A stretch of 64,000 nucleotides of DNA from Elusimicrobia bacterium GWC2_64_44 (GCA_001799845.1 MGUG01000035.1:717-64716); one strand, 5' to 3'; shown: positions 3,350 through 63,480, counted from the stretch's first letter. Numbers and translations: made by a program. The notes: a model not told the origin generated them from the letters alone.

Positions 3350-3352
3350 CGC

Positions 3353-4684: not shown

Positions 4685-4706
4685 CGCGCGGTCCGCGGCT
4701 GACATA

Positions 4707-4744: not shown

Positions 4745-4758
4745 GCCTGTCCGGCAGT

Positions 4759-12042: not shown

Positions 12043-12074
12043 AAAAAGAGGGACCGATGTCCCTCTTTTTCTTT
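12043..12074 (-). terminator. rho-independent terminator ending the flbD-motAB-lipoprotein unit
   Basis: A 12-bp perfect stem: aaaaagagggac (12043-12054) pairs with gtccctcttttt (12059-12070). The loop is 4 nt. On the minus-strand RNA the hairpin is followed by a U-rich run, about 20 nt after the stop at 12090. Confidence 0.75.
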
Positions 12075-12089: not shown

Positions 12090-12839
12090 TTATTGGCCGA
12101 AGTCGAAGCCTTTGAACAAATCCTCTTCCGCCTGAGTGCCGCCCGCCGGCGCGGCAGTATCACCTGCCGCCGGCTTGGCCGGCTCCGGTCCCTTGGCGCC
12201 GGGCAGGCTCTGCATGCGGCCCTTGCCCTCGCCCACCGGCTGCACAATGATCTTGCGCACGCCCTCGGCGAAAGCCAGGAAGCCCGTGTCGAGGTTGAAA
12301 TAAAGCCGGAAAGGGGATTCCTTCATCTGCGGCTCGTAGGCCTTGCCCAGGTTCAGCCGCTGCTGGTCCCAGCCCGGGTTATAGACCAGCTTGCCGCGCA
12401 CGTCCACCTCGTTGTCGGTGACCGGCAGCGAAAAGTGTATCTTGAAGAGCCCCATGGTATCGCTGATGCCGGGCGCGAAAGAGAGGTTGATCCCGGCGCC
12501 GGCGTTCTCTTCCATGGCGAAGGCGTCCGCGCCGTCGCCGCCGCCGCCTGCCCCGCCCTTGCCCGCGTCGGGCAGCACCTTCACGGTGACGCCCTCTATG
12601 GGGTTGCCCTGGTAATCGGTGATCACGCCCTGGACGTTGCCGTCGAGGAAAGTGCCCATCTTGGTGGTGGAGAAGAACAGGAACTCGCGTTTGCCGGTGA
12701 CCTTCCTGGTCAGAGAGAGGTCGCCGACGCGGGAGTCGGTGAAATCCACCACCTTCAGGCGCTTAAGCCCGCCCATGCAGCCCGCCAGCGGGGCGGCCAG
12801 CAGCGCAACAGCCAGTAATTTAACGAGTCGCTTCTTCAT
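12090..12839 (-). CDS. lipoprotein (hypothetical), 4 nt downstream of motB
   Basis: Lipobox in MKKRLVKLLAVALLAAPLAGC. A carboxypeptidase-regulatory-like beta-sandwich hint (GVITDYQGNPIEGVTVKVLPD). Pro/Ala-rich C-terminal tail. Confidence 0.7.
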   Translation of the reverse strand: MKKRLVKLLAVALLAAPLAGCMGGLKRLKVVDFTDSRVGDLSLTRKVTGKREFLFFSTTKMGTFLDGNVQGVITDYQGNPIEGVTVKVLPDAGKGGAGGGGDGADAFAMEENAGAGINLSFAPGISDTMGLFKIHFSLPVTDNEVDVRGKLVYNPGWDQQRLNLGKAYEPQMKESPFRLYFNLDTGFLAFAEGVRKIIVQPVGEGKGRMQSLPGAKGPEPAKPAAGDTAAPAGGTQAEEDLFKGFDFGQ

Positions 12840-12843
12840 AGAT

Positions 12844-13635
12844 CTAGTTGCCTCCCTCCGCGGGGGCCTCGCCGGCCTCCGCCGGGGTCTCGGGCGCCGC
12901 CGGGGTTTCGGCGGGCGGGGCCGGAGCTTCGCCGGGGCCGGGCAGCTGCGCTTCGGCCCCTTCGGCCGGTTTAGGCGCGGGGGCGTTTACCAGGCCCGGC
13001 GGCTGCGGCGCGTCGGGATAAGCGTTATTCTTGATGAAGAACACCACGCGGCGGTTCGTCTTGCGGTTGGCGACGGAAGTATTGGGGACCTTGGGGTGGT
13101 ATTCCCCATAGCCCACGGCCGCCATGCGCTTGGGCGGGAATTTTGCTCCCAGCATGGACATGACCACGCTGGTGGCGCGGGCGGTGGACAGCTCCCAGTT
13201 ATTGGCATATTCCTTGGTGGCTATCGGGATATCGTCGGTATGACCTTCCACCACTATGTCCTGCTTCTCGGCCAGTTTCAAAAGGATAGGGCTGATCTTA
13301 TCGAGCTGCGCGCGCATCTGGTCGGTGAGCTCGGCGCTGCCGCTCTCGAAGAAGGCCATGTCGCTCTGCTCCTCCATCGTTATGCGCATGCCCTCCTTGT
13401 CCATCGTCACGCTGCCGGACATCTTGCCTTCCTTGATCATCTCCTGGATGTCGGCCTGCGCCTTCTGCATGTCCTTGTTGAGGGCGGCGGAGAGGGCGTA
13501 GAGGATGACGAAGAAGCAGACCAGCTCGGTCATCAGGTCGGCGTAGTTGACCATCCACGGGGGCGCGGGCTCGCCTACGGGCGCCACGCGCCTGTCGTCC
13601 TCCGGGATCATTCCTTTTACGGCTCTTACGGGCAT
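12844..13635 (-). CDS. motB: MotB-type stator protein (OmpA-like peptidoglycan-binding C-terminus)
   Basis: WMVNYADLMTELVCFFVILYALS is the plug/TM segment with the conserved Asp. FESGSAELT...VVEGHTDDIPI...NWELSTARATSV...NRRVVFFI is the OmpA_C-like domain. A Pro/Ala-rich tail follows. Confidence 0.85.
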   Translation of the reverse strand: MPVRAVKGMIPEDDRRVAPVGEPAPPWMVNYADLMTELVCFFVILYALSAALNKDMQKAQADIQEMIKEGKMSGSVTMDKEGMRITMEEQSDMAFFESGSAELTDQMRAQLDKISPILLKLAEKQDIVVEGHTDDIPIATKEYANNWELSTARATSVVMSMLGAKFPPKRMAAVGYGEYHPKVPNTSVANRKTNRRVVFFIKNNAYPDAPQPPGLVNAPAPKPAEGAEAQLPGPGEAPAPPAETPAAPETPAEAGEAPAEGGN

Positions 13636-13653
13636 AGGTAATCGCTCCCGGGG

Positions 13654-14439
13654 CTAGGCCGGGGTCTCTTTCTTGATGGCGGCGCGGGCGGTCGGGTCCA
13701 GGTAGGCCTTCAGGTTGGCCTCCACCACGCTGGGCGTGGCGCCGCTCTGCAGCAGCAGCACGCCGCGGATGATGATCTCTTTTACGAACAGCTCCTCGTC
13801 GGAGCGGTTCTTGAGCTTGCCGCCCATGGGCATGAACAGCCAGTAGCCCGACGCAAGGCCGTAGAAGGCGGCGGCGAGCGCGAGGGCCATGCGGCGCGGC
13901 ACCTGGGCCACGTCGTCGATGGAGGAAAGCATCAGGATCATGCCGAGCACGGTGCCGATGATGCCGAACGCCGGGGCGTAGGTGCCCAGCGCGTTGAAGA
14001 TCTCGCGGCCGTTCTTGTGGCGCTCGCGGATGAAGTCGATCTCGGTCTCGAGCATGTTGCGGATGAACTCGTGGTCCGCGCCGTCGATGACCAGCTGCAC
14101 GCCGCGCTTGAGGAAGTCGTTGTCGATAGCCTTCACGTCGGACTCGAGCGACAGGAAGCCGTCCTTCTTGGCCTTCTGCGACAGCGACACGAACGTGGTG
14201 ACCAGCTTGGAGGTGTCCTCGCCCTTGGTGGTCAGCACCTTCTTGAGGATCTTGCCGGAGCCGATCACGGAGGAGAGCGGGAAATTGACCAGCAGCGCGC
14301 AGAAGGTGCCGCCCATGACGATCAGGAAGGCCTCGATGTTCATGAAGGGCTTGAAGCCCGCGATGCCTTCCTGCAGGTAGACGGACCCCAGCACGAAGCC
14401 CATGAAGACCACGATACCGCTTAATGTGCCTATATCCAT
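13654..14439 (-). CDS. motA: MotA/TolQ/ExbB-family proton-channel stator protein
   Basis: 261 aa with 4 predicted TM segments. The C-terminal half has the family pattern (AFGIIGTVLGMILML...ALALAAAFYGLASGYWLFMPMGGKL). It is flanked by flbD and motB. Confidence 0.85.
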   Translation of the reverse strand: MDIGTLSGIVVFMGFVLGSVYLQEGIAGFKPFMNIEAFLIVMGGTFCALLVNFPLSSVIGSGKILKKVLTTKGEDTSKLVTTFVSLSQKAKKDGFLSLESDVKAIDNDFLKRGVQLVIDGADHEFIRNMLETEIDFIRERHKNGREIFNALGTYAPAFGIIGTVLGMILMLSSIDDVAQVPRRMALALAAAFYGLASGYWLFMPMGGKLKNRSDEELFVKEIIIRGVLLLQSGATPSVVEANLKAYLDPTARAAIKKETPA

Positions 14440-14454
14440 GAGAGCAGCGTCTCC

Positions 14455-14679
14455 TTACTTTTTCTCGTAACCCTCCAGCGGGTTAATGCATTTCCTTTCG
14501 GAATAAACTTTCTTCTTGTACTCCACGACCAGGGCGATGACCTCGTCCACCGGGTTCCTGACCAGGTAGCGGTTGCCGGTGGCCAGGTTGATCACCGTGT
14601 CCGGCGAGCCCTCCACGCTCTCGATCAGTTCGGCGTTGACCACCACGAGCGAGCCGTTCAGTTTTTCGAGTTTGATCAT
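14455..14679 (-). CDS. flbD: FlbD-family small flagellar protein
   Basis: MIKLEKLNGSLVVVNAELIESVEGSPDTVINLATGNRYLVRNPVDEVIALVVEY matches the FlbD pattern. It occupies the classical position upstream of motA. Confidence 0.75.
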   Translation of the reverse strand: MIKLEKLNGSLVVVNAELIESVEGSPDTVINLATGNRYLVRNPVDEVIALVVEYKKKVYSERKCINPLEGYEKK

Positions 14680-14767
14680 GTCTTTTAATTATACTTTAAA
14701 TAAAAATAAAGGCGGCGGACGACCCCGGTCCCCCCCGCCGTTAAACACGCTCCGTCTCAGGCCCCAG

Positions 14768-17128
14768 TTACTCTTTTTTGCCTTTCAGGGCCCACTTAAG
14801 CCGTCCGCCCAGGGAGGCTTCTATGGCCCGGTATTTTTCCAGCTCGGCGGCCAGCTCGGCGGCGCGGGCGTTCTGAGCGGCGTCCTGCTCGGCGGCGGCG
14901 GACTGCAGGCCGGCGGCCCTGGCCTGCTCGGCCTCCAGCTGGGAGGCGGCTTCCTGGGCCTGGAATTCCATCTGCTGGATCTTCTGCTTGAGGAAAAGCA
15001 GCTCGGATTCGAAGCGGGAGCGGTTCTCGGCCTCGAGGCGCAGGTTCTCGGCCTGGGCCTTCAGGTTCTCTCCCTGCCCGCGGAGGGCTTCGTCGGCTGC
15101 GGCTTTCTGGGCGGCCAGGGCGGCATAACCTTCGCGCAGGGCGGCATATTCCGCGGCCAGGCGCTGGCGGTCGGCCTCCAGGGCGCGCGCCGTCTTCTCT
15201 ACCTCTTCTTTCTGGCCCGCCAGCAGGGCGGCCTGCTCGTCGCGCAGCTTCACCGAAGCCGCGGCGCGGGACATCTCTTCTTCGAAGTGTCTGGCCTTCT
15301 CCGCCAGGGCGCGGTCAAAGGTGGAGGCGTCGCCGGCCAGGCGGCGGTTCTCGGCCTCCAGGCGGGCCACCGCTTCCTGCGCGGCGGCCGCGGCGGCGCG
15401 GGCTTCCTTGAGCTGGTCCGTGTAGACGGACTCCAGCTGCCGCTTCAGCGCGGACTTCTCTTCCTCGGCGGAAAATTCGTACTTCATGCGCAGCTGCGAG
15501 AGCTTGGCGTCGAAGTCGGCCTGGCGCTCCCCGGACAGCCGGGCGAGCTCGGCCTGCTGGGCGGCGGCCTGGCGGGCCAGTTCGGCCTGCTTATCGGCGG
15601 CTGCCTTGGCCAGCTCGGCCTGCTTATCGGCTGTCACCCGGGCCAGCTCGGCCTGTTTCTCGGCGGTCACCCTGGCCAGCTCTTCCTGGCGGGCGCGGTT
15701 GAGCTCGGAGATCTTTTCCTCGTGGCGGCGGTTGAACTCGGCGGTCAGCTCGGTGCGGACCTTCTCCACTTCAGCCGCGGCGCGGGCGGCCATGGCCTCC
15801 AGCTCCGCCTGGTGGGCGCCCTTTATGCCGTCGCTCTCCTGCCTGAGCTTGCGCAGCTCCTCGAGCTGGCCGGCCATGTTCTGGGCGAGCTGCATCTTCT
15901 CCAGCTTCAGCTGGCCGCGCTCCTTCTCCAGCACGGCGTTGATGGCCTGCACGCGGGCCACAAAGCCCTTGATCTTCATGAGCTCGGAAATGGCGCGGAT
16001 CTTCTCTCCGGACACGTCGGCCAGGAGTTTCTCTTTCTCCTGCAGCTGGGCCTCATAGCCCTCGGCGGCCTTGCGCAGGGCCTCGTTCATCTCGGAATTC
16101 TTGCGGTCGGACAGCGTGCCGATCTCGGCCTGCAGGCGGCCTATCTCGCCCTGCACTTTCTCGGCCTCGTAGCGGACCTTCTCCTCGCGGTGGGACGCCT
16201 CCAGCCGGGAGGTCTCCTCGCGGCCGCGCAGGGAGGCGTTCTCGGCCTTGAGGTCAGCGATCTCGCGCTCCTTCTCGGGCATCATCTTGATCCAGCCCTC
16301 GATGGAGGCCTTTTCGCGCTCGGCGCGCGCCACGTCGTCGCGCAGCTTGGACGCCTCGCGCTCGGTCATGGACTTCTCGAGCGAGACCTTGCGGAACTCG
16401 TCCTCTACGTCGCGCAGGCGCTCCGCGGAGGTCTTCAGCGAGCGGATCGTCTCTTCGCGGCTTGAAATTTCCTTCTGCCACTGGGCTTTCTCGTCCAGCC
16501 AGCGGCGCTCCATCTCCTGGAGGCGGTAGATGAAATGGCCCTCGGTGTCGCGGCCCTGGGTCTCGCGCTCGGACATCTGGTTCTTGAGCGTGGTCATCCA
16601 GGTCTCGCGCTCCTGCGCCAGGCGGGATTCCATCTCCTTGATCTTGGACTTCAGCGTGAGGCGCTCCTCCTCGACCTCGTGGTCGCGGCGGTCGCGGCGC
16701 ATCTTCTCCTGTATATCCTTAAGGGAGGTCTCCACGCGGGAGGAGAGCACTTCGTCCTGCTGGCTCTTCAGCGTGGCCAGCAGCGCCTTCTCCTTCTCGG
16801 CGGACAGGAGCTTCTCCATGTCGTTGATCTTCTTCTCCAGCTTGTCCTTCTCCTCCTGCATGCGGCGGGACTCCGCCTCGGCGGCGTCCCTCTGCGCCTG
16901 CGTGGGGCCGGCGGGAGGCGCGGGCTGCTGGAAGTTTCCGGGCATGGCCGGGAAGGCCGGCGCCTGCATACCGGGCAGCTGGGGCATGGACGGCAGAGAA
17001 GGCTTGCCGCCGGGAGGAAGCGGCGGCAGATTGGGTTTGGCCATGCCCGGGGGAAGCGGGGGCATGCCAGGTTTAAATTTGTTCTTGTCCTTGTCGTCCA
17101 TAAACATTGCGCCTAGAGCCGGTATCAC
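14768..17128 (-). CDS. polyproline N-terminus + very long coiled-coil protein (hypothetical)
   Basis: The ORF-track start at 17128 is GTG; an ATG at 17107 (MFMDDKDKNKF) is an alternative. The N-terminus is PPLPPGMAKPNLPPLPPGGKPSLPSMPQLPGMQAPAFPAMPG. About 700 aa of E/K/R/A/L-rich heptad-like sequence follows. It includes the tandem units AEKQAELARVTADKQAELAKAAADKQAELARQAAAQQAELARL. Confidence 0.75.
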   Translation of the reverse strand: MIPALGAMFMDDKDKNKFKPGMPPLPPGMAKPNLPPLPPGGKPSLPSMPQLPGMQAPAFPAMPGNFQQPAPPAGPTQAQRDAAEAESRRMQEEKDKLEKKINDMEKLLSAEKEKALLATLKSQQDEVLSSRVETSLKDIQEKMRRDRRDHEVEEERLTLKSKIKEMESRLAQERETWMTTLKNQMSERETQGRDTEGHFIYRLQEMERRWLDEKAQWQKEISSREETIRSLKTSAERLRDVEDEFRKVSLEKSMTEREASKLRDDVARAEREKASIEGWIKMMPEKEREIADLKAENASLRGREETSRLEASHREEKVRYEAEKVQGEIGRLQAEIGTLSDRKNSEMNEALRKAAEGYEAQLQEKEKLLADVSGEKIRAISELMKIKGFVARVQAINAVLEKERGQLKLEKMQLAQNMAGQLEELRKLRQESDGIKGAHQAELEAMAARAAAEVEKVRTELTAEFNRRHEEKISELNRARQEELARVTAEKQAELARVTADKQAELAKAAADKQAELARQAAAQQAELARLSGERQADFDAKLSQLRMKYEFSAEEEKSALKRQLESVYTDQLKEARAAAAAAQEAVARLEAENRRLAGDASTFDRALAEKARHFEEEMSRAAASVKLRDEQAALLAGQKEEVEKTARALEADRQRLAAEYAALREGYAALAAQKAAADEALRGQGENLKAQAENLRLEAENRSRFESELLFLKQKIQQMEFQAQEAASQLEAEQARAAGLQSAAAEQDAAQNARAAELAAELEKYRAIEASLGGRLKWALKGKKE

Positions 17129-17191
17129 ATCTATATTCTAAAAGAACCCGATTTCTTTTTGGTTACAAGATTGTTAACAATTTAAAGGGTC

Positions 17192-17285
17192 GGGGACGTT
17201 GTTGAGTTGTTGAGTTGTTCGCAAAGTGTCTAGGGGGCAAGCATGGTCCATACATGAAACAACTCAACAACTCAACAACGTCCCC
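17192..17285. repeat. 28-bp perfect inverted repeat (long hairpin) between the FliF/FliG-fusion gene and the coiled-coil gene
   Basis: ggggacgttgttgagttgttgagttgtt (17192-17219) is the exact reverse complement of aacaactcaacaactcaacaacgtcccc (17258-17285). The loop is 38 nt. Each arm contains 2 tandem gttgagtt units. Confidence 0.85.
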
Positions 17286-17290
17286 TAAAT

Positions 17291-19243
17291 CTATCTCCCT
17301 ACGCTGGCCTTGAAACCGGCCAGCCATTCGGTGGCGGCGGGGTCACCGGACAGCGCGGCGTACTTCTCGTAGGCGGCCACGGCCTCGTCCACCCGCTGCA
17401 GCCCGTAATAGGCCGCGCCCAGGTACTGCCAGGTAGTCGCGTCGCCGGGGTTCGCGGACGAGGCGTATTCCAGGTACTGCAGGCTTTCCTGCACCTGACC
17501 CTGGTTGTACATATTGATGCCGGCGTCGGCGTACTGCTTCGCCTGCGCGGCCTGCTCCGGAGAGGGGCCGGCGGGGGCCTCTTCCTTCGGAGCGGCGCCT
17601 CCTGAAAGCTTCTCGTACTTCCTGCGGCGCTCGTCGCCCGAGGACATCTCGGCCCCGTCGATCAGGTAGATCTCCTGCGAGGAGCCGCCGCGCGAGGCGA
17701 TCTTGCCCTCCGCCTCCAGCGCCTTGATAGCGTCGAGGATCTTCATCTGCGCCTCGTCCTGCTGGGCCTGCGTGACGTTGCCGGAGTACTCCATGATCTC
17801 CTTGATGGCGTTCACCGCGCCCGAAGACATGTTGGCGAAGAACTTCTCCGAGATGGCCGGGTCGGCCTTGGCCACGGCGCGCGCGATATCCTCGTTGTTG
17901 AGGGCGCGGATAATGGTCTGGATGTCGCGGTCGGCGAACTCTATGATATCCTCGAACATCAGCACGATGCGCTTGACCTTGGCGTAGATGTCGGGCTTCT
18001 GCGTCTTGAGGTACTCTATGATGTTCTTGCGCGTGGCCGGGTCCGAGTCCTCGAGCATCTTCGACAGGCGCTCGATGCCGCCCATCACGAAATCGACGTT
18101 CTCCTTTATATCCCTGTCTATGGCGTCTATCTGCTCGCGCGTGGCCTGGCGCACCGTCAGCGCCTCCAGCGCCACGCGGCTCTGCATCTCCACGGGCAGC
18201 ATGGACAGCGCCTGGCGGGAAAGGTCCGGCTTCATATAGCTCAGCACTACGGCTATCACCCACGGGTCCTCTTTGCGCAGCAGGAACAGGTAGATGAGCC
18301 GCTTGAGGTTTTCCTCGTTCAGGTAAGTGAACGGTTCAAATTTCTTCATACTCTCGTCCTCTTCTTCCTTCTTCTCGTCCTCTTTCTGGAGGAAGTTCAT
18401 GTCTATGCTCTGGTGGCCCTCGGTCTCCTCCTTGCCCTCCTCATCGCCGCCGCCGCCTCCGCCCTCTTCCCGCTTGTCCTCTATGTTGACCTCGGCGCCG
18501 GGCTTGGCCATCAGGGCTTTGATGTACTTGCGGAAGAAGCCCCACAGCGGGCCGAACAGGAACAGCAGCAGCAGCAGGAACAGCAGCGCGTAAAGCAGGG
18601 GCAGGTAGACCGACGGCTTCTTGAGGTCGTCCAGGGGGTTAGCCGCCTTGAACTTGGTCGGTTTGAACAGCACGGTGGGCGCGTCCTTCTTGCGTATCTT
18701 GTAAGGCAGCAGGAAGTCGTCCACCCGCTCGCGGGCCAGTTTGACCGCGGCGGGCTGCAAAGTTTCGTCGTGGATGACGGTGAGCTGAAAGCGGGTGATC
18801 TCGGTCTCCACGCCGTAGCGGATCTCCTGCACGCCCTTGGCCTGCTGGGCCTGCTGGCCCGAGGCGGCTTCGGGGCGCTTGTTCTCCCCCCCCAGCACGG
18901 AGCGGGGCTTGGGAATGCCGGGCAGGATGAAATCGGTGTCGGGGCTGTCGGCGCCGGCGCCCTTCTCCTTGTACTTCTGCATGATGCCCAGGCCTTCCTT
19001 GGTCTGCTCGGCCTTCTTGGCTATCACTTCCAGTTCCACGTCGGCGAAGACGAAGGACCGGTCGGCCCCGAGGATGGGGTCGAGGATTTCCTTCTTGATC
19101 TTGGTCTCGGCCTCCCGGCGCAAACTATCCTGCTTCTCGAGCAGCGAAGTCTCCATCAACGGATTATCCGGGGCGTCCGCGGCATACATCCGCGCCGCCC
19201 CGAAGCCCGCAATGAGCGCCAGGACCGCAAAAAGCTTCCTCAT
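17291..19243 (-). CDS. membrane-anchored FliF(C-terminal ring/TM part)::FliG(middle+C domains)::TPR fusion protein
   Basis: Signal peptide MRKLFAVLALIAGFGAARMYA. FliF-like ring-building segments (ETKIKKEILDPILGADRSFVFADVELEV; EITRFQLTVIHDE). TM helix VYLPLLYALLFLLLLLFLFGPLW, then an acidic linker. FliG_M-like EDPWVIAVVLSYMKPDLSRQALSMLPVEMQSRVALEAL (EHPQ-box position). FliG_C-like RDIQTIIRALNNEDIARAVAKADPAISEKFFANMSSGAVNAIKEIMEYSGNVTQAQQDEAQMKILDAIKALEAEGKI. C-terminal TPR (AQAKQYADAGINMYNQGQVQESLQYLEYA...TWQYLGAAYYGLQRVDEAVAAYEKY). Confidence 0.75.
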   Translation of the reverse strand: MRKLFAVLALIAGFGAARMYAADAPDNPLMETSLLEKQDSLRREAETKIKKEILDPILGADRSFVFADVELEVIAKKAEQTKEGLGIMQKYKEKGAGADSPDTDFILPGIPKPRSVLGGENKRPEAASGQQAQQAKGVQEIRYGVETEITRFQLTVIHDETLQPAAVKLARERVDDFLLPYKIRKKDAPTVLFKPTKFKAANPLDDLKKPSVYLPLLYALLFLLLLLFLFGPLWGFFRKYIKALMAKPGAEVNIEDKREEGGGGGGDEEGKEETEGHQSIDMNFLQKEDEKKEEEDESMKKFEPFTYLNEENLKRLIYLFLLRKEDPWVIAVVLSYMKPDLSRQALSMLPVEMQSRVALEALTVRQATREQIDAIDRDIKENVDFVMGGIERLSKMLEDSDPATRKNIIEYLKTQKPDIYAKVKRIVLMFEDIIEFADRDIQTIIRALNNEDIARAVAKADPAISEKFFANMSSGAVNAIKEIMEYSGNVTQAQQDEAQMKILDAIKALEAEGKIASRGGSSQEIYLIDGAEMSSGDERRRKYEKLSGGAAPKEEAPAGPSPEQAAQAKQYADAGINMYNQGQVQESLQYLEYASSANPGDATTWQYLGAAYYGLQRVDEAVAAYEKYAALSGDPAATEWLAGFKASVGR

Positions 19244-19325
19244 ACAGTATTTATTTTATCTTTATCCTATTACAGAAAAGTTTCAGAATCGTTCATTCTT
19301 TACGGCTGGGGGCGCTCGTGGTTGG

Positions 19326-19612
19326 GCGGCATACCGCAGGGATAGGACCGCAAAACGCGTTCGCGCACACCGTGCGCTCACTCCGCATTCGGCCTCGGCG
19401 CTACGCAAGCCTCGGCCTCATGAGGGTTTTGCTTGTCCTACCCCTGCGGTCTCCGCCGGTTGCTCGCTTAGAATAGTACTGACACGGACGGAGGGGCGGT
19501 GAGGGTATGCCTTCGCAGGGGCCTCACGAGGCCCGAGCTTGCGTAGCGCGAGGGCCGAGCTGACAGAGCGAAGCCACGGTGTGGCCGAGCGTACCCGGAG
19601 AAGGCATACCCT
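19326..19612. repeat. two diverged, inverted copies of a hairpin-forming intergenic element of about 110-135 nt
   Basis: Unit 1 (19326-19458) closes through ggcggcataccgcaggg..aggac pairing with gtcct.cccctgcggtctccgcc. Unit 2 (19498-19612) closes through gagggtatgccttc (19501-19514) pairing with gaaggcataccctc (19597-19610). The unit cores are reverse complements of each other (cggcctcggcgctacgcaagcctcggcctcatgagg versus cctcacgaggcccgagcttgcgtagcgcgagggccg). Confidence 0.6.
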
Positions 19613-19633
19613 CGCCGGCCTGCCCCACCCCTC

Positions 19634-21250
19634 TTAGCGCACCTGCTTGAGGAAGTTGCGGACCATGGTGTTGTTGGGGTTGATCTCCACGACCTTCTCC
19701 CAGATGACCTTGGCCTTCTCCTTCTGGTCCATCAGGTAGAAAGAGCTGCCCATGATCTCGAGCGCGGTCTCGTTGTTGGGCTCGAGGTCCAGGATGTCCT
19801 GCGCGCGCTTCATGGCCAGGTCGTACTTGCCGTCATAGATGGCCTGGCGGGCGTCATAGGTGCGCTGGTCTATATAGGTAAAGATCTCGGGGCCCTCGGG
19901 CTTGCGGGTCAGCTCGCTCACGCCGGCCTCTTTCTCCACCATGTTCAGCAGCGACAGCAGGCGGTCGTTCTTCGGGTCCTTGTTGAAGGCGTGGCGCAGC
20001 ACGTTGACCGAGGCGCGCAGGTCCTTGCCGTCCACGTAGGAGATGATGCCGCGGCGGGTCAGGGTGGGCACCTCGTCGCCGCCGGTGGCGTCCGGCACGT
20101 AGTCGATGGCGCCCTGCAGGCGGGTCACCATGCGGCGGATCTCGGCGTTGCCGGGGTCGGCGTCCATCGCGGAGCGCAGTTTCTCCATCGCGCGGCCGAA
20201 GTAGCCGGACTTGAAGTACTGCAGCGCCTGGCGGATGATCTCGCGGACCTCGCGGTCGTGCTTGGCCTTGTTGCTCTGGCCCAGGCGCATCGTCACGGAG
20301 AAGCGGGTGGTGGTGCCGAGGGCGTGCACGCCCTGGGCGATGTCGAAGCCCAGGCTCTTGTACTTGATGCCGAGGCCGAAATCGGCCTCCTGGATCTCGG
20401 GGGAACCCATCACGCCGAAGCGCAGGGCGCTCCAGTACATCAGCCAGTACTCGCCGCCGAAGCGCCAGTTCATGTCGGCGCCCTGGGGCTTGACCAGGTC
20501 GAAGCCGAACAGCAGGCTGCCCTTGAACAGCGACAGCGCCTGGCCGAACTTCAGGGTCAGGGGCAGCTTGTCCTCGGTGTCGCCCGAGGCCATGGAGAAG
20601 ACGTTCTGGATGCCGATGGCGGCGCGGTAGGTCTTGGAGAACTTCTGCAGCATCGCGATGTCGATGGCGTTGAAGGAGTCGGCGGAGGTGTCCAGGGTGC
20701 GGGAGATGTTCTTGGCCATGATGCCGAAAGAAAGCTTATCGGAGACCTCGCGGCCCCAGGAGAAGGCCAGCGCGCGCTCCACGCTGTCGAAGGTGCCCAG
20801 GGTCTTGATGTCGATGATCTCGTCGCCGGCCGGGTTGGCGGTGATGGAGATCTTCTCAAAGCCCACCGACTTCAGCTGGGTCATGCTGACGGCCCAGGTG
20901 CCCTTGCTGGTAGTGGGGTGCGCGTAGGTGAAGAAGTTAAGGGTGGTGTCCGCGAACAGGGTGGCCTGCATCGCGGTGAACTCCTTGCGCTCGAGCATCG
21001 TCAGCGCGGCGGGGTTCCAGTAGGAGGCGGAGGCGTCGTCGGCCACCGCGAAGAAGGCGCCGCCCATGCCCAGGCCGCGGGCGCCGGCGCCGTAGCTCAT
21101 GAAGGCGCCGGGCTGGCCGCCGCTCTGCGCCAGGGCGTTAACGGCCGAAAAGGCAATAAAAAACCCCATGGCGAGGCTGAAGCGCATTATACGCTTCGTT
21201 TCAGCCCATATAGCCAAGGGGGCAAAGGCAATACAAAGATTGCTTTTCAT
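19634..21250 (-). CDS. FadL/PorV-like outer-membrane beta-barrel fused to a C-terminal TPR domain
   Basis: The likely true start is the ATG at 21187 (MRFSLAMGFFIAFSAVNALAQ signal peptide). The N-terminal barrel signature is AGARGLGMGGAFFAVADDASASYWNPAALTML, the FadL/TodX/PorV-type motif. Alternating beta-strand pattern runs to about aa 325. TPR-like repeats follow (YFKSGYFGRAMEKLRSAMDADPGN; YDGKYDLAMKRAQDILDLEPNN; KEKAKVIWEKVVEINPNN). Confidence 0.75.
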   Translation of the reverse strand: MKSNLCIAFAPLAIWAETKRIMRFSLAMGFFIAFSAVNALAQSGGQPGAFMSYGAGARGLGMGGAFFAVADDASASYWNPAALTMLERKEFTAMQATLFADTTLNFFTYAHPTTSKGTWAVSMTQLKSVGFEKISITANPAGDEIIDIKTLGTFDSVERALAFSWGREVSDKLSFGIMAKNISRTLDTSADSFNAIDIAMLQKFSKTYRAAIGIQNVFSMASGDTEDKLPLTLKFGQALSLFKGSLLFGFDLVKPQGADMNWRFGGEYWLMYWSALRFGVMGSPEIQEADFGLGIKYKSLGFDIAQGVHALGTTTRFSVTMRLGQSNKAKHDREVREIIRQALQYFKSGYFGRAMEKLRSAMDADPGNAEIRRMVTRLQGAIDYVPDATGGDEVPTLTRRGIISYVDGKDLRASVNVLRHAFNKDPKNDRLLSLLNMVEKEAGVSELTRKPEGPEIFTYIDQRTYDARQAIYDGKYDLAMKRAQDILDLEPNNETALEIMGSSFYLMDQKEKAKVIWEKVVEINPNNTMVRNFLKQVR

Positions 21251-21254
21251 CGTT

Positions 21255-21330
21255 TTCGGCAGCCTGACCCCCGCTTACTTAGCGGGTCTAAGCTTTGCGC
21301 CGCCAGCTTTCGCTGGCTTTGCTATTATCG
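21255..21330 (-). promoter_or_regulatory. candidate c-di-GMP-I (GEMM)-like riboswitch aptamer, copy A (5' leader of the PorV-like/motor operon)
   Basis: Minus-strand RNA: CGAUAAUAGCAAAGCCAGCGAAAGCUGGCGGCGCAAAGCUUAGACCCGCUAAGUAAGCGGGGGUCAGGCUGCCGAA. Hairpin 1 is GCCAGC-GAAA-GCUGGC (GNRA loop). Hairpin 2 is CCCGCU-AAGUA-AGCGGG. The flanks GCAAA, GCGCAAAGC and GCUGCCGAA match my memory of the GEMM consensus (GCAAA..GNRA..GACGCAAAGC..ACCGAA). It is 68/76 identical to copy B, with stem differences compensatory. Confidence 0.6.
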
Positions 21331-21375
21331 TAACAATACGGCATTACAACGCTGTTACAGATTTACGGCATTAAT

Positions 21376-21403
21376 ATTATAGCAGATAATATGGGTTTGT
21401 CAA
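21376..21403 (-). promoter_or_regulatory. sigma70-type promoter A (TTGACA-16 nt-TGcTATAAT)
   Basis: On the minus strand the -35 is TTGACA (21403..21398), the spacer is 16 nt, and the extended -10 is TGC-TATAAT (-10 at 21381..21376). The same architecture and spacing occur at 63342..63369. Confidence 0.7.
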
Positions 21404-21409
21404 GGGGGA

Positions 21410-21429
21410 GGTATTGACATGTCAATACC
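21410..21429. promoter_or_regulatory. perfect 20-bp palindrome upstream of promoter A (operator/activator-site candidate)
   Basis: ggtattgaca/tgtcaatacc is self-complementary. Its core TTGACA-TGTCAA sits just upstream of the -35. The counterpart ttgac-ag-gtcaa lies at 63381..63392, at the equivalent position of promoter B. Confidence 0.55.
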
Positions 21430-21525
21430 TATAGTATACCCCCTAAAACCCCCCTTTGTCCAGCCCCCCCCCGGCCCACTCTGACCAGGCCCTACCGCGC
21501 CCTGCACTCGCTTATGATGCGGCGA

Positions 21526-21708
21526 GATCATGCCCTTTGTAAGCGATTTTAGGGCGTAGGGCCAAGGTCCGTAGCGGACCGCCTATCATTAAGGCGGCGG
21601 CAGAGATTGTCTGAGGAGCGCACTGTGTGCGCGACGAGTTCTCCGCCGGCGGAGGACCGCAGGCCCTCTTCCCCCACGCCCGCTTATGAGCGAGCAAAGG
21701 GCATGATC
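21526..21708 (-). other. highly structured 3' region immediately after the giant-gene stop codon
   Basis: A 14-bp closing inverted repeat: gatcatgccctttg (21526-21539) pairs with caaagggcatgatc (21695-21708, 5 nt after the stop). Nested local hairpins include ctccgccggcggag, gcgcac-tgt-gtgcgc, ggtcc-gctac-ggacc and ccgcc..ggcgg. No U-tract was recognised. Confidence 0.5.
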
Positions 21709-21712
21709 GAGC

Positions 21713-24700
21713 CTAGTGAATTACGCCCACCTTGCGCATGATGACCTTGCTGCCCTTGGGGCTGGAGGCCTTCACGCGCACTATATAGCCGCCCTTGCCC
21801 ACCACGCCGCCCAGGCCGTTCTTGCCGTCCCAGAGCACGTGGTTCGGGCCCAGCTGACCGCCGGGGCCGCCGCTGGAGAACTTGAATTCGCGCACCACGT
21901 AGCCCAGCAGGTCGTAGATCGTCAGCGTCACCTCGGCGTTATCGTTGAGGGTATAGGTCAGGTCGACGCGGCCTTCCACGCCGCCCTTGCGCAGGTCCAC
22001 CGGGTTCGGGTAGCTGGAGACCTTGGAGAGCAGCTCCTCGCCTATGGTCGTGCCGGCCGGGGTGGAGACCGTGGACCATTCCGAATGCTCGCCGGCGAAG
22101 TTCCAGCTGCGCACGCGATAGGCGTAATACTGGCCCAGCGGCCGCGGGGTCTCGCCGGGCACGCCCGGGTCGCCCACGGTATAGATGTTGTTCAGCGCGC
22201 CGCCGGTCTTGAAGCCCGGGATGGCGGCGATGGTCTTCCAGACGGGGCTCGTGCCCTCGCGCTCCTGGATCTCGTAGGACATGATATTGGACTCCAGGTC
22301 CTGCGCCTGGTTCCACTTCAGCGCGTAGGCCTGGCCGGAGGCCACGCCCTTGGCCACCTGCGGCTCCGGCGCCCCGGGCGTGGTCGGGTAAGTGGTGTCT
22401 ATGCGGTAGATCAGCACCGGCACGCCGTTCTCGCTGGGGATGTACTGGCCCGAGGCCATCAGGCCGCGCACGGAGATGACGTAGGCGCGGTCGGACACCG
22501 TCTCGCCCCAATAGGTATGCGGGCCCTTGAACGAGCCCTGCACGCCGCGCTCCACGATCTTGAAGGTCTTGGCGTCGAGCTTGTTGACCAGCATGATCTC
22601 GTTGCCCACGTAGGCGATGCCCTCCGCGGCGAAACCCTCCGTGGAGTCCACCGTGAACGAGGAGGAGTTAACCTCGATGCGGCTGATCAGCTTGGTGAAG
22701 TGGCCGGGCGACAGCGCCACATTGGTCACCTTGCCGGTCAGCGCGGTGCCCACGGTCTGCCAGGAATTCTTGATGCCGGTCGGCTCGGCGTAGTTGCCGC
22801 CCAGCGAGACCTCGTAGGAGACTACAGGGCCGGAGGCCGGGTTCCAGAGGGCCGTCAGCTCGGTCGTCCTGGCGGACCAGGCCGAGGGCACGGCGCCCAG
22901 CTCGGAAACGGCCAGTTCGACGCGGGAGTTCCTCACGTTGTCGCCTATGAAGTAGAGCGGCTTGCCGGTGCCGTCGTCCACGATGCGGTCGGACACGTAG
23001 TCGAGGTTGGTCTCGAAGTCCAGCAGCCCGTCGCCGTCTATGTCGAAGGTGGGCAGGCCGGAGTTGTTCAGCGTGACGTTGAGGCACTTGCCCGAGCCGT
23101 AGAAGTCGAAGTTATCGGGCCGGCCGTCGCCGTTGATATCTATCAGCGGCTCGTCGGCCTTGCAGCCCGAGGCGGTGTAATTGTAGATCCAGCCCTTCCA
23201 GCCGGCGGGCACGGCGCCGTAGGAGACGCTGGCCGTGTTGGCGATGGGCAGGTTGCCCGCGCCCAGCACCACGTTGCCGCTGGAGTCGGTCATCGCGTAG
23301 GCGGGGTAGCCGTTGGACGCCAGCATGATGTTCTTGTACACCGGCGTCAGCGGGATGACGGCCGGGGCGATCAGGACCTGGTTGGAGGTCATCGGGTAGC
23401 TGTCGGAGAAATTCTGGCCGGCGGCCAGCGGCAGCCCGCCCAGGCCGCGCATGTCGTTGAAGGTGCCCAGCGACAGGCTGGCCAGGTGCCCCAGGGTGTC
23501 CGCGCCGGAGAGGTCGGTGGAGGAGCTGACGTCGGCGGAGAGGTGCAGCACCAGCCCGCCGGTGGACACTATGACGTAAGGCAGGTTGCCGTCCATGATG
23601 GTGACCGTGACCTGGCTCTCGAAGGGGTTAGTGGCGGAATTCACCGCGTAGCCCAGGCGGTAGTCCGAGATCGGGCTGAACGCGCCGTCGCCGTCGTCCT
23701 TCCACAGCGAGACCACGGCCAGGTCGCCGTCGCCGTAGCCCGCGGTGGCGCTGCTGATGGAGCCCCCCTGCGTGAAGTTGATCTGGCCTATCGCCACGAA
23801 GTCCGAGAGGGTCTCCAGGTTGAAGCTCAGCATCGGCACGTTGCGGGTGTTCTTCTCGGCCGACTTGGGCGAGACATTGGTCCCCGAGACGGCCAGCGTG
23901 ATGGCGCGGATGGGCACCAGGCTGGAACTGAACGGATAGATGTCGCTGTAGTTGCCCTTGGGCAGCGCCTTCGTGATCCCGATATAGACCGTCGGGGAGA
24001 TGTCGTGCGGCGCGTTGACCGTGAGCCAGGACTTGTCACGGATCATCAGGCCGACCTTGTTGGCCTTGATGGCCATTTCGCCGATGTCATAGACGGCGAA
24101 GAAAGTCTGCGCCAGCGGGCTCAGCGTCTGCGTCTGCGACAGCGAGACCGTGATCTGGGTGTTCAGCGCGTTGTCCTGGTCGAACAGGTCCACCTTGCGC
24201 ACCCTGGCCCCGGCGGGATGGTTGATCAGCGGCGTAATGAAGTCGCCCAGTTTCTCGCCTCTCGAAGTCACGTTCAGGTACGGCTTGCCGGAACCGTCGA
24301 TGCCGGAGCCGGAGTAAGTGATCAGTTCGGCGTCGCTGACATAGAGGCGGCCGGAGACCGGGAAGCCCTTGGTGGACTCCAGGACCAGCTGGAACGGCAC
24401 CGTATCCGTGGAGGTGAACGGCCTGTAGAGGGTGCTCCTGGCCTCGGAGATGTTGACGTCGTTCACGTCGAGCATGTCGTTCTGGTTCGAGTCCTGGTAG
24501 ATGGACACGAACTTGACGTCGGTGTTCTTGCCGAACGGCGCGTTCGGGTCGTTGGAGGCGCCGGTGCGCTGCACCTTTACGGCGCTCCAGCGGGCGTTGC
24601 CGGCCTCGGTGGTCAGGTTGAAGCGCACCATCGGCACGCCCACCTGCGCCTGGCCTACGCCGCCGCCCTGCACCAGGTCGGCGGCCATGTCGTTGGCGCC

Positions 24701-62098: not shown

Positions 62099-62104
62099 AG
62101 ATCT

Positions 62105-62737
62105 TTATTTTTTCGGCAGCGTCTGCAGCGCGTTGCCGGCCCAGAGCGCCGTTTTGGCGTCCTTGCCGGCCTTCAGCGCGTTCAGGGCGGCGCGCGCCCT
62201 GGCGGTACCTGTCTTGGCCAGGCTGTTGACCGCCGCCTTGCGCACCAGTTCGTCCTTGTCCTCGGCGGCGGCCTTGCGCAGCGGCTCCACGCCGTCGTCC
62301 GACTTAAGCCTGCCCAGCACCTCGGCCGACTTCAGCCGGGTATTGCGGTCGGCGTGGGACAGCAGGGCGCCCAGGGTCTTGGCCGCGCGCTTGTCGCCCA
62401 GGTCGCCCAGGGCGTCTATCAGCGGCAGGCGGGTTTCGTCGCCGGCCGCGGCCAGTGCGTCGGTAAGGGTTTTGTAGGCGGTCTTGTCGCCGGACTTGGC
62501 GAGCAGGCGGGCCGAGCGCTCGCGGACCTCGGGGTCCTTGTCGGCCATGGCCCGCTTGAGCAGTTCCGGCTTGCGCTGGTCCTGCATCCCGGACAGCTTG
62601 TTCAGGGCCTTGCGGCGCGTCTTGAAGTCGCCATCTGCCAGCTCGGCCTCGACCGAGGACAGTTCAGCCGACTGCTGGGCGGCGGCGAACACGGCGGGGA
62701 GCGCTATTAATATTACAGTAAATAGTAGTCTGTGCAT
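62105..62737 (-). CDS. periplasmic HEAT-repeat protein, translationally coupled to the giant gene
   Basis: I prefer the ATG at 62737 (MHRLLFTVILIALPAVFAAAQQ signal peptide) over the ORF-track start at 62953, which runs through an AT-rich non-coding-looking stretch. HEAT/PBS-lyase-type repeats: DPEVRERSARLLAKSGD, DETRLPLIDALGDLGD, DRNTRLKSAEVLGRL, DKDELVRKAAVNSLAKTG. The stop TAA (62105-62107) lies 6 nt before the giant-gene ATG (62098). Confidence 0.75.
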   Translation of the reverse strand: MHRLLFTVILIALPAVFAAAQQSAELSSVEAELADGDFKTRRKALNKLSGMQDQRKPELLKRAMADKDPEVRERSARLLAKSGDKTAYKTLTDALAAAGDETRLPLIDALGDLGDKRAAKTLGALLSHADRNTRLKSAEVLGRLKSDDGVEPLRKAAAEDKDELVRKAAVNSLAKTGTARARAALNALKAGKDAKTALWAGNALQTLPKK

Positions 62738-62806
62738 AGGCAAACAAAAAACGACCAGACCTTGCCCAGGCGTTTTTTTCCAGGGGCAAAGCACGGATAT
62801 TAAACC

Positions 62807-62834
62807 ATTATAATATAAATTAATTGTTTCGCAA
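62807..62834 (-). promoter_or_regulatory. possible proximal promoter (TTGCGA-16 nt-TATAAT) in an AT-rich patch
   Basis: On the minus strand the -35 is TTGCGA (62834..62829) and the -10 is TATAAT (62812..62807). The AT-rich context could produce this by chance. Confidence 0.3.
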
Positions 62835-62951
62835 ACGTTAAACGCGCGTGAACGACCGCCGGATACAATACAGCATCCTTCTCCCCTTCCGGGCAGACCG
62901 CCATAATATCCACGCGCCGTCACGGCTCTGGACATTTCGCCTCCCAGGCCC

Positions 62952-63026
62952 AAAAAAAGGGCCGTTTCTGCTCTCTTCGCCTCAACCCGGTTCTGGGCTG
63001 ATACCCCGAAGACAGCGGAAACGGCC
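62952..63026 (-). terminator. terminator-like hairpin about 50 nt downstream of aptamer B (candidate expression platform)
   Basis: On the minus-strand RNA, GGCCGUUUC (63026..63018) pairs with GAAACGGCC (62968..62960). C-U7 follows immediately (62959..62952). The enclosed loop of about 49 nt may add further pairs. Confidence 0.4.
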
Positions 63027-63073
63027 TAAATCCGTTCCGACACGCCGGCACAAAAACCGGTCGGTTCTTCATC

Positions 63074-63149
63074 TTCGGCAGCCTGACCCCCGTTCACATA
63101 ACGGGTCTTAGCTTTGCGCCGCCGGCTTTAGCCGGCTTTGCTATTATCG
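63074..63149 (-). promoter_or_regulatory. candidate c-di-GMP-I (GEMM)-like riboswitch aptamer, copy B (5' leader of the HEAT + giant-gene operon)
   Basis: Minus-strand RNA: CGAUAAUAGCAAAGCCGGCUAAAGCCGGCGGCGCAAAGCUAAGACCCGUUAUGUGAACGGGGGUCAGGCUGCCGAA. It has the same flanks as copy A. Hairpin 1 is GCCGGC-UAAA-GCCGGC and hairpin 2 is CCCGUU-AUGUG-AACGGG. Relative to copy A, both stems keep pairing through double substitutions. Confidence 0.6.
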
Positions 63150-63164
63150 GATACTTCAAAAAAC

Positions 63165-63271
63165 GTCCCGCCCTTTTGGGACACACACCGCGCTCACACT
63201 GCACCGCGTCTGTCTGCGACCGCAACCGCGACCGCACCGAACTACTCCGCACCGAGCCAAAAGGGCGGGAC
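63165..63271 (-). repeat. 15-bp inverted repeat bounding a 77-nt insert in leader B; terminator-like on the RNA
   Basis: gtcccgcccttttgg (63165-63179) is the reverse complement of ccaaaagggcgggac (63257-63271). On the minus-strand RNA the hairpin is followed by GUUUUUUG. The segment is absent from leader A, which has only 45 nt between the -10 and the aptamer. Confidence 0.6.
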
Positions 63272-63341
63272 ACCACGACCGCACTACAACCACGCTACGC
63301 AACGCCACAACCGCACCGCAACTGCACCACGCTGCAAATAT

Positions 63342-63369
63342 AGTATAGCAGATGGAGCGGGTTTGTCAA
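63342..63369 (-). promoter_or_regulatory. sigma70-type promoter B (TTGACA-16 nt-TGcTATACT)
   Basis: On the minus strand the -35 is TTGACA (63369..63364), the spacer is 16 nt, and the extended -10 is TGC-TATACT (-10 at 63347..63342). The flanking sequence is homologous to promoter A (tatagcagat....gggtttgtcaag). The upstream palindrome ttgac-ag-gtcaa is at 63381..63392. Confidence 0.65.
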
Positions 63370-63480
63370 GCCCTGCCAGCTTGACAGGTCAACACCTGGC
63401 CGCCGACGAAAACACTCGGCGGTTAACTGCCCGGACCCGCGCCGCAACGCTTGGCAGGGCGGCCGCATGGCCCAGTCAGA

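Follow-up and report, generated by a model that had tools for sequence, protein, structure and literature searches.

Introduction

In type IX secretion systems (T9SS), which are known from the Fibrobacteres-Chlorobi-Bacteroidetes (FCB) group, PorV binds the C-terminal domains (CTDs) of cargo proteins, and a 5:2 motor (GldLM) powers secretion as well as movement of the adhesin SprB. In the flagellum, the part of FliF that comprises the third ring-building motif (RBM3) and the collar builds the S-ring and collar and pairs one-to-one with FliG, RBM1 and RBM2 hold the export gate, and the gene order flbD-motA-motB occurs in spirochaete, clostridial and Thermotoga flagellar operons. Here, we describe a 64,000-nucleotide stretch of DNA from Elusimicrobia bacterium GWC2_64_44 (GCA_001799845.1 MGUG01000035.1:717-64716), in its full length referred to as the window, in which flagellar rotor and stator parts are encoded with a PorV-like outer membrane barrel and lie beside the gene for a giant secreted protein that ends in a T9SS-like CTD. 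The source is a groundwater Elusimicrobiota (Elusimicrobiales) genome, the G+C content of the window is approximately 65%, and the Elusimicrobiota lie outside the FCB group.

Complete flagellar gene sets have been found in only a few Elusimicrobiota, and most free-living members lack flagellar structural genes yet carry motAB, flbD and fliG, the role of which was called "unclear"; surface motility was offered as a speculation for flagellum-less members (Uzun et al., bioRxiv 10.1101/2022.07.08.499144). A search of a library of papers returned no description of the present system, only this passing remark on the orphan genes. The original prediction, made from the sequence of the window, had called the system undescribed, which holds for the system itself but not for the orphan genes, since these had already been remarked on. 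Its architecture is without a match among described systems, and the gene set falls short of the definition of a flagellum and, within the limits of the sequence at hand, of that of a T9SS. The interpretation that we tentatively favor is a conserved, non-flagellar envelope machine assembled from flagellar motor parts, switched by a cyclic-dinucleotide riboswitch and working with a T9SS-like cargo-sorting pair, namely a PorV-family barrel and CTD-bearing cargo.

A rotor fusion encoded with a stator and an outer membrane barrel

Every gene of the system lies on the minus strand, and the order of transcription is HEAT-repeat protein, giant open reading frame (ORF), barrel with tetratricopeptide repeats (TPR), rotor fusion, coiled-coil protein, FlbD, MotA, MotB and lipoprotein. 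These genes form two units, B (HEAT and giant ORF) and A (barrel-TPR through lipoprotein), each preceded by a riboswitch leader. A single polypeptide joins the C-terminal RBM3/collar region and transmembrane (TM) helix of FliF to FliG_M, FliG_C and TPR; it is encoded in one operon with FlbD-MotA-MotB, the PorV-like barrel, a coiled-coil protein and a lipoprotein, and a GEMM-I aptamer heads both operons. The motor parts are as follows:

17291-19243, minus strand: rotor fusion, composed of a signal/TM segment, FliF RBM3/collar-like periplasmic domain, TM helix, acidic linker, FliG_M, FliG_C and TPR
14455-14679, minus strand: FlbD, stator-associated flagellar accessory protein (Pfam PF06289, E 9e-24)
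13654-14439, minus strand: MotA stator subunit (MotA_ExbB, E 1.5e-28)
12844-13635, minus strand: MotB stator subunit (MotB_plug, E 7e-12; OmpA-like peptidoglycan-binding domain, E 3e-16; Asp in YADLMT)

Pfam models identified FliG_M (E 1e-10), FliG_C (E 2e-24) and a C-terminal TPR in the fusion, and the closest solved relative of its cytoplasmic part is the FliG middle-plus-C-terminal fragment 1lkv (E 4e-38). The first 250 amino acids gave no Pfam match, YscJ_FliF included. An AlphaFold model of this region consists of a helix, a strand, a disordered insert of approximately 65 residues, a strand, a helix, a strand and the TM helix, with a core predicted local distance difference test (pLDDT) score of approximately 90, which in the model is a ring-building-motif topology carrying an insertion. 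When it was compared with the PDB by Foldseek, the best 17 matches were all to RBM3 and collar of the FliF MS-ring (probability 0.66-1.0), on which basis the modeled periplasmic domain is FliF-like; TM-scores against FliF were low, owing to disorder of this collar insert in the model of the monomer. Engineered FliF-FliG fusions are known to assemble, and one of them, PDB 8z4d, was among the PDB matches. A profile of the N-terminal domain recovered only 101 clusters among 1.84 billion representative proteins, with no canonical-length FliF among them, and no FliF among PDB sequences. Of ten distant family members that were scanned, eight retain FliG_M, FliG_C and TPR, and in four the N-terminal domain scores above the cutoff of Pfam YscJ_FliF_C. 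The proposal that this gene encodes a truncated FliF::FliG(MC)::TPR fusion was therefore borne out, by hidden Markov models (HMMs) for the FliG and TPR parts, by FliF folds among the Foldseek matches and by YscJ_FliF_C in distant relatives.

The fusion departs from the flagellar pattern at several points. A full-length FliF carries RBM1, RBM2 and RBM3 between two TM helices, and the fusion has only approximately 200 periplasmic residues, which match RBM3/collar. FliG_M and FliG_C are present within it rather than in a separate FliG with FliG_N and an EHPQR motif; RBM1/2 and a distinct FliG_N are absent, a covalent join through the acidic linker replaces FliG_N, and the FliM-binding motif EHPQ is changed to EDPW, so that a rotor without a switch complex would be expected. 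The charges conserved in the flagellar FliG torque helix and MotA cytoplasmic loop are not kept as a set: aligned to 1lkv/3ajc and numbered as in E. coli FliG, the torque helix shows R281G, D289I, R297T and K264A, with D288 retained as E. These replacements and EDPW are invariant within the fusion family, and many residues are invariant across it, including positions in the TM helix and torque helix. In MotA, the position aligned to PomA R88 (R90 equivalent) is K in 44/45 orthologues. Judged from these alignments, the FliG-MotA interface appears conserved but rewired.

The stator itself is of flagellar type, with a MotB that has the plug, the conserved Asp and the peptidoglycan-binding domain. 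The MotP, MotA and PomA models gave 185-235 bits on the window MotA, under their equivalog cutoffs, and its nearest solved chains are flagellar MotA/PomA (E 1e-50). Genes for a C-ring (FliM/FliN), export apparatus (FlhA/B, FliPQR, FliHIJ), rod, hook or filament were not found in the 64-kb window, in which the neighbors on both flanks are housekeeping genes (SurA-like proteins, PdxA, a radical SAM enzyme, Ddl, MnmA and a methyltransferase). The original prediction had the genes of both units running in one direction, each of which was recovered in place, and had likewise seen no other flagellar genes in the 64 kb.

An accessory or alternative rotor serving a genuine flagellum encoded elsewhere in the genome is very improbable. 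It would be in keeping with the closeness of MotA, FlbD and FliG_MC to flagellar proteins, with the view of the genome that 64 kb provides, and with the full flagellar sets of a few Elusimicrobiota (Uzun et al., bioRxiv 10.1101/2022.07.08.499144). Against these stand the missing RBM1/2 and FliG_N, the changed FliM-binding motif and torque-helix charges, and an operon partner, the PorV-like barrel, that has no role in flagella. Furthermore, the operon sits among housekeeping genes in 31 loci, and flagellar structural genes are absent from most of the free-living Elusimicrobiota that carry this gene set (Uzun et al., bioRxiv 10.1101/2022.07.08.499144).

The PorV-like barrel and the sorting-type tail

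The second half of the proposed machine consists of the barrel and its candidate cargo:

19634-21250, minus strand: outer membrane PorV/PorQ-family beta-barrel (approximately residues 50-322) with C-terminal TPR; likely start at 21187
21713-62098, minus strand: giant secreted protein of 13,461 amino acids, with Sec signal peptide, divergent Ig-like repeats and a C-terminal sorting-type tail
21716-22045, minus strand: CTD, the last 110 residues of the giant protein, T9SS type-A-like with a FlgD-Ig fold

The barrel matches NF033709 (PorV/PorQ family) with 111 bits against a cutoff of 90, so that the PorV/PorQ-family outer membrane barrel expected of a T9SS is present; it falls below the cutoffs of the PorV, PorQ and PorV2 equivalog models and also gives weak Toluene_X and UPF0164 matches. 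A FadL/PorV-like barrel with TPR had been proposed, and its PorV side was upheld above a curated cutoff, its TPR was confirmed and its Toluene_X match was weak. Throughout the family, and in the distant loci L119-L121 as well, the barrel gene lies immediately 5' of the fusion gene.

The giant protein has a unique N-terminus of approximately 800 residues, followed by divergent repeats from approximately residue 800 to 10,000, and gives weak Big_13/Big_3 matches. In single-HMM searches, the window CTD scored just under the cutoffs, with 26.3 bits for FlgD_ig (cutoff 27) and 22.5 bits for TIGR04183 (cutoff 23). All orthologous CTDs (15/15) match TIGR04183 and the tails of PorU/PorZ, with best E values of 1e-6 to 1e-9, so that the FlgD-Ig/T9SS-like identity proposed for the CTD is assigned at the family level. 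The fold family is shared with the FlgD Ig domain; the nearest outgroups, seen as distant profile matches, are annotated as T9SS type A sorting domains, in a homologue search whose matches were mostly short fragments. Mean column identity among orthologous CTDs is approximately 80%, compared with as little as 34% for the protein bodies, and the CTD is always at the extreme C-terminus. Conservation of a terminal domain while the bodies diverge is a pattern that suits a recognition tag. From these sequences, the best reading is that the conserved barrel and CTD form a cargo-sorting pair and that the TPRs of the barrel are periplasmic.

The giant protein differs strongly between very close strains. 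On a 67-kb contig that encodes an identical fusion protein (L001, k127_726256), the giant gene at positions 1-7563 was called as 16,125 amino acids instead of 13,461, and the last 700 residues of its product are only 47% identical to those of the window protein; the adhesin therefore varies strongly at this distance.

One contig appeared to break the link between barrel and fusion. On a JGI contig (L002; 9545-10045, set against window 19200-19700), the sequence agrees exactly with the window for approximately 190 nucleotides upstream of the fusion gene and then passes into unrelated genes. The switch point is a duplicated intergenic repeat of approximately 75 nucleotides (AAAACCCTCATGAGGCCGAGG...) in the 390-nucleotide gap between the barrel and fusion genes. 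Because the divergence falls exactly at this duplicated repeat, the contig was set aside as counter-evidence to linkage, and its upstream context is probably an assembly join at the repeat.

Conservation of the operon and of its link to the giant gene

Related loci were compared by means of the window's own proteins, in a scan of species-representative genomes and a separate metagenome scan based on a pattern of the aptamer subtype. The fusion sequence is present in identical form on groundwater metagenome contigs, and its best 120 database relatives share 59-94% identity with it and come from Elusimicrobia metagenome-assembled genomes wherever the source names an organism. The genome scan yielded 63 species-level loci, all from Elusimicrobiota where named. 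The order PorV-TPR, fusion, coiled-coil, FlbD, MotA, MotB, lipoprotein is constant across fusion identities from 96% to 44%, in agreement with the linkage between barrel and motor that had been proposed. Because gene order is kept in 63 species-level loci at 44-96% identity, these sequences indicate purifying selection on a non-flagellar arrangement, and the operon appears clearly to be under selection as a unit. A neighboring flagellar regulon would have pointed the other way; instead, the neighborhood is one of housekeeping genes, with mnmA-ddl downstream of the operon in 31 loci.

An upstream ORF with the same CTD directly adjoins the operon in 37 genome loci and on the contig from the window's own strain (L001), and a giant ORF ending in this CTD is also found upstream in approximately 16 metagenome loci. 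In one further locus (L048), a protein of 1,678 amino acids bears a related tail. The co-occurrence of the FliF::FliG::TPR fusion, PorV-like-TPR barrel and CTD-bearing giant gene in those 37 loci upholds the predicted linkage for the Elusimicrobiales clade; in the deepest clade, the operon does not have the giant gene as its neighbor.

In three very distant, low-GC loci (L119-L121), a GEMM-I riboswitch precedes the genes for barrel-TPR, fusion and Pro-rich coiled-coil protein, and FlbD-MotA-MotB is kept in L121. In L119, two PorV genes and two genes for Por_Secre_tail/CHU_C cargo are found no more than approximately 8 kb from the fusion, the CTD being borne by an S8 protease and a Big_5 protein. 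A GEMM-I(-GGC) riboswitch in this locus (980-5568) heads the gene for the S8 peptidase with its Por_Secre_tail/CHU_C tail together with a PorV gene.

Other Elusimicrobia carry further non-flagellar derivatives of FliG. One locus (L067, 8125-15557) encodes a stand-alone FliG_M+FliG_C protein beside a separate, divergently oriented relative of the N-terminal domain of the fusion, among Sel1, TonB, ExbB and HEAT genes, and another (L068, 9983-11260) encodes a FliG_M::glycosyltransferase-2 fusion.

The distribution of the operon also bears on whether it is a functionless relic, in decay since a flagellum was lost. Flagella have largely been lost in the phylum (Uzun et al., bioRxiv 10.1101/2022.07.08.499144), as such a history would require. 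The ORFs are nevertheless intact in approximately 60 species, many residues are invariant, including those in the TM helix and torque helix, gene order is kept, and the riboswitch is conserved with covariation. The relic interpretation is effectively refuted by these conservation data, and it and a true flagellar role are both unlikely.

Riboswitch leaders of the two units

Units A and B begin with similar promoters and leaders, as the original prediction had seen in outline:

21376-21403, minus strand: unit A promoter, TTGACA-16-TATAAT (12/12, TG-extended)
63342-63369, minus strand: unit B promoter-like site, TTGACA-16-TATACT (11/12, TG-extended)
21255-21333, minus strand: unit A GEMM-I (cyclic di-GMP-I class) aptamer (Rfam RF01051, 60.2 bits)
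63074-63152, minus strand: unit B GEMM-I (cyclic di-GMP-I class) aptamer (Rfam RF01051, 55.8 bits)
62952-63026, minus strand: predicted terminator hairpin GGCCGUUUC...GAAACGGCC with U7, expression platform of riboswitch B
62807-62834, minus strand: second promoter-like site, TTGCGA-16-TATAAT, in an AT-rich block conserved at the DNA level downstream of riboswitch B

The near-consensus promoters have in common the extended motif TTGACAAACCC...ATCTGCTATAMTAT. Both aptamers score well above the Rfam gathering score of 35, and stem differences between the two copies, as well as among orthologues, are compensatory, so that the leaders, foreseen as riboswitch-like, belong to GEMM-I by score and by covarying stems. 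A GEMM-I-class aptamer precedes the operon in 12/12 loci tested, the three very distant low-GC loci included. Among the 50 loci found by the metagenome pattern scan, the aptamer subtype heads a PorV-TPR/fusion operon in 24 and a HEAT protein in approximately 19, where a large secreted protein follows wherever the sequence suffices. Both operon types occur on one contig in at least two cases, and a glycosyltransferase/radical-SAM locus is likewise headed by the subtype.

At the position of Vc2 G20, which is associated with c-di-GMP selectivity when it is G, both aptamers and all Elusimicrobiales orthologues have A (UAGCAAA compared with the consensus GGCAAA), a hallmark of GEMM-Ib riboswitches that respond to cyclic GMP-AMP (cGAMP) or are bispecific. 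Therefore, these riboswitches may bind c-di-GMP, 3',3'-cGAMP or both. In the deeper clade (L058, L062) the position is occupied by G, and the signaling molecule may thus differ between it and the Elusimicrobiales.

The terminator hairpin of riboswitch B is conserved with covariation in 16 metagenome leaders, and the conserved 3' tail of the aptamer, CCGAAGA, is complementary to UCUUCGG in the 5' arm of the terminator; the sequences hint, without being decisive, at an OFF switch. The leader of unit B is more complex than that of unit A, as it contains an extra Shine-Dalgarno (SD) sequence with ATG, the AT-rich block and a further hairpin before the signal peptide. The AT-rich block (AATGTTTGCGAAACAATTAATTTATATTATAATGGTTTAATATC, 62796-62838) lies between the terminator and the HEAT signal peptide and is conserved in L071, L074, L082, L083, L102, L106, L117 and others. 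It stands in a stop-free frame within a long HEAT ORF that starts from a conserved SD-ATG and encodes ...ETxxLYYNxLIxxLC..., and it may serve as an internal promoter or be translated as an N-terminal extension.

Directly 5' of the unit B aptamer, between it and the promoter, is a GT-rich stretch with repeated GGTGCGG units (63160-63272, minus strand), enclosed by a perfect 15-bp long-range hairpin (GTCCCGCCCTTTTGG / CCAAAAGGGCGGGAC) that is followed by T6; the stretch has no Rfam match. Upstream of unit A, a perfect 20-bp palindrome (GGTATTGACATGTCAATACC, 21410-21429, minus strand) with GGGGG/CCCCC on its flanks ends 6 nucleotides 5' of the -35 box, and could be an operator or mark the end of the transcript of the giant gene.

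Remaining genes and flanking features

The other members of the two units, and the end of unit A, are listed here:

14768-17128, minus strand: 786-residue coiled-coil protein, with Pro-rich N-terminus followed by a long coiled coil and without a signal peptide
12090-12839, minus strand: conserved lipoprotein with lipobox LAGC and invariant C-terminal DLFKGFDFG
62105-62953, minus strand: HEAT-repeat protein (Pfam HEAT_2, E 4e-33)
12038-12066, minus strand: intrinsic terminator closing unit A, hairpin AGAGGGAC-ATCG-GTCCCTCT then a T-run, read from the sequence

The coiled-coil protein matches no Pfam family and is read from its sequence as probably cytoplasmic; every locus, L119-L121 included, has in this position a protein that likewise combines a Pro-rich N-terminus with a coiled coil. 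In L119, the coiled-coil gene of the fusion operon is followed by one of the Roadblock/LC7 (MglB-like) type (15798-16145). The lipoprotein has no family assignment, and an AF2 model of it, built from a 31-sequence alignment, had a pLDDT of 46 and was unusable. The start of the HEAT gene is ambiguous, either at an ATG with SD at 62936 or at an ATG at 62737 with the signal peptide directly after it. The terminator expected behind unit A was located as a clean hairpin and T-run at 12066-12038.

Between this terminator and mnmA, a gene at 10000-11907 (minus strand) encodes a secreted HEAT-repeat protein with OmpL47-type Ig-like domains, in a segment with a G+C content of 54.6% compared with approximately 65% elsewhere. 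This insertion is found only in the window and in one other locus (L006); in 29 other loci, mnmA directly follows the lipoprotein gene.

A proposed machine and the points that weigh on it

A narrower proposal than the one favored above, and one that we hold more hesitantly, is that the natural FliF-FliG fusion ring with MotAB/FlbD powers an apparatus, T9SS-like or gliding-like, that exports, anchors or moves CTD-tagged giant adhesins by means of the PorV-like barrel and is controlled by a cyclic-dinucleotide riboswitch. In the favored interpretation, the fusion would oligomerize into an MS-ring-like rotor without export gate, rod, axle or FliM/N switch, and peptidoglycan-anchored MotAB would turn or load this rotor at the expense of the proton gradient. 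From the periplasmic collar of the ring, work might then reach the outer membrane by way of the barrel's TPR arm and/or the lipoprotein, while the barrel would bind the conserved tail of Sec-exported giant adhesins at the outer membrane. Motor work would be spent on export or surface attachment of the adhesin, possibly on movement along a surface (gliding), so that rotor and stator would fill the role of GldLM/PorLM in Bacteroidota, and a shared second messenger (c-di-GMP and/or 3',3'-cGAMP) would act on both operons. From ring formation onward these are steps that we infer, and motor-coupled export or surface translocation of the adhesin is what we infer from gene adjacency and co-regulation.

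Several observations weigh against this interpretation. The connection of the motor with the barrel, and with the adhesin, is one of adjacency and co-regulation. The FliF identity of the window protein comes from its fold, with sequence support from family members and no direct HMM match in the protein itself. Four of the five classical charges of the FliG torque helix are replaced, and the MotA position aligned to PomA E96 (E98 equivalent) is E in 30/45 orthologues and Q in 15/45; with the helix charges replaced and the acidic partner Q in a third of orthologues, torque generation in the flagellar style is not to be assumed. The SprA/Sov translocon, PorU sortase, PorZ, PorK/N or GldK/N ring and PorL/M (GldLM) were not seen in the 64-kb window, and neither the window nor the flanks that were fetched yielded a rod or other periplasm-spanning coupler. 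In the deepest clade (L056, L058-L062, L064, L066), no CTD gene is located within 10 kb, and flbD-motAB is not adjacent to the fusion operon in L119 and L120. Finally, with a second promoter-like block located after the riboswitch terminator, riboswitch control of the adhesin may be partial.

Several of these points also fit with the main rival to the favored interpretation, a shared regulon only, in which the motor/PorV-like operon and the HEAT and giant operons respond to the same cyclic dinucleotide with no contact between their products. The FliF::FliG-MotAB assembly would then energize another envelope process through the barrel (uptake, outer membrane remodeling or mechanosensing) in a TonB/Tol-like manner. 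The universally kept core consists of barrel-TPR, fusion and coiled-coil protein, usually with FlbD-MotAB, and does not include the adhesin, the giant gene being adjacent in one clade only; the weak FadL/Toluene_X and UPF0164 matches of the barrel, the presence of the riboswitch subtype at the glycosyltransferase/radical-SAM locus and the second promoter-like site, which may uncouple the adhesin from the riboswitch, are likewise compatible with separate machines. We nonetheless consider this somewhat unlikely, as the barrel scores above the curated PorV/PorQ cutoff, and we know of no clients of the PorV/PorQ family other than CTD proteins. Moreover, conservation of the CTD far exceeds that of the remaining giant protein, and the very distant locus L119 independently pairs the fusion with PorV and CTD cargo.

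A pure motility engine, in which rotor and stator move exported adhesins or a track with no role in secretion, as in SprB/GldLM or Agl-Glt gliding, appears improbable. To our knowledge, gliding has not been reported for any Elusimicrobiota, and track or periplasm-spanning proteins were not identified in the window and fetched flanks. Rotor/stator parts, a giant repetitive adhesin, a Pro-rich, track-like coiled-coil protein and second-messenger control are all typical of switches between motility and sessility and would suit such an engine, as would the Roadblock/LC7 (MglB-like) gene after the coiled-coil gene in L119 and the surface-motility speculation in the literature (Uzun et al., bioRxiv 10.1101/2022.07.08.499144). 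On sequence data it is inseparable from the favored envelope machine.

We know of no described non-flagellar machine built around a FliF/FliG rotor, and the present system, if correctly interpreted, would be the first such use and a third independent solution to motor-driven handling of surface adhesins, after GldLM-T9SS and Agl-Glt. A conserved rotor without an axle would imply that a rotor-stator pair can be selected as a unit alone, which bears on the evolution of the flagellar motor and on the abilities of its sub-assemblies. Should the coupling to a PorV-like barrel and tail-tagged cargo prove real, sorting in the style of the T9SS and the handling of adhesins by a motor would no longer be confined to the FCB superphylum, and the engine would be a different one. 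The system would also offer a concrete candidate reason for the retention of motAB, flbD and fliG by Elusimicrobiota without flagella, even by magnetotactic ones. The compact gene set with its RNA switch, which is possibly cGAMP-responsive, is suited to heterologous expression and cryo-electron tomography.

Comparison with known systems

The flagellar basal body shares with this locus the FliF RBM3/collar-like domain with TM helix, FliG_M, FliG_C, MotA, MotB (plug, Asp and OmpA-like domain) and FlbD. In contrast to the basal body, the window has a natural FliF-FliG fusion with added TPR, without RBM1/2, FliG_N or FliM/N, with EDPW in place of EHPQ and with the torque-helix charges largely replaced; export, rod, hook and filament genes are not nearby, the fusion is co-operonic with a PorV-like barrel, and the host phylum is mostly non-flagellated.

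The T9SS/gliding apparatus of Bacteroidota (SprB, PorV, GldLM/PorLM) resembles the present system in its giant repetitive adhesin with a type-A-like tail, its PorV/PorQ-family barrel, the proton-driven stator of 5:2 type encoded alongside and the occurrence of CTDs on diverse cargo. It differs in that MotAB and a FliF/FliG rotor here stand in the place of GldLM, the barrel carries TPR, control is by GEMM-I riboswitches, and SprA/Sov, PorK/N, PorU and PorZ were not seen in the 64-kb window. The Agl-Glt system of Myxococcus likewise has a proton channel of the flagellar-stator family repurposed to move an envelope complex and surface adhesin, and a Roadblock/MglB-like gene occurs here in one distant locus (L119); AglRQS is TolQR-like and works without a FliG/FliF rotor, whereas Glt homologues were not found among the genes of the present system.

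Finally, control of surface organelles by GEMM-I/GEMM-Ib riboswitches, as in the flagellar and pilus operons of Clostridioides difficile and the cGAMP riboswitches of Geobacter, is shared at the level of aptamer class and of a second-messenger RNA switch, and the A20 variant found here matches cGAMP-responsive or bispecific GEMM-Ib riboswitches. What differs in the Elusimicrobia system is the set of genes under control, and the unit B leader contains extra conserved elements.

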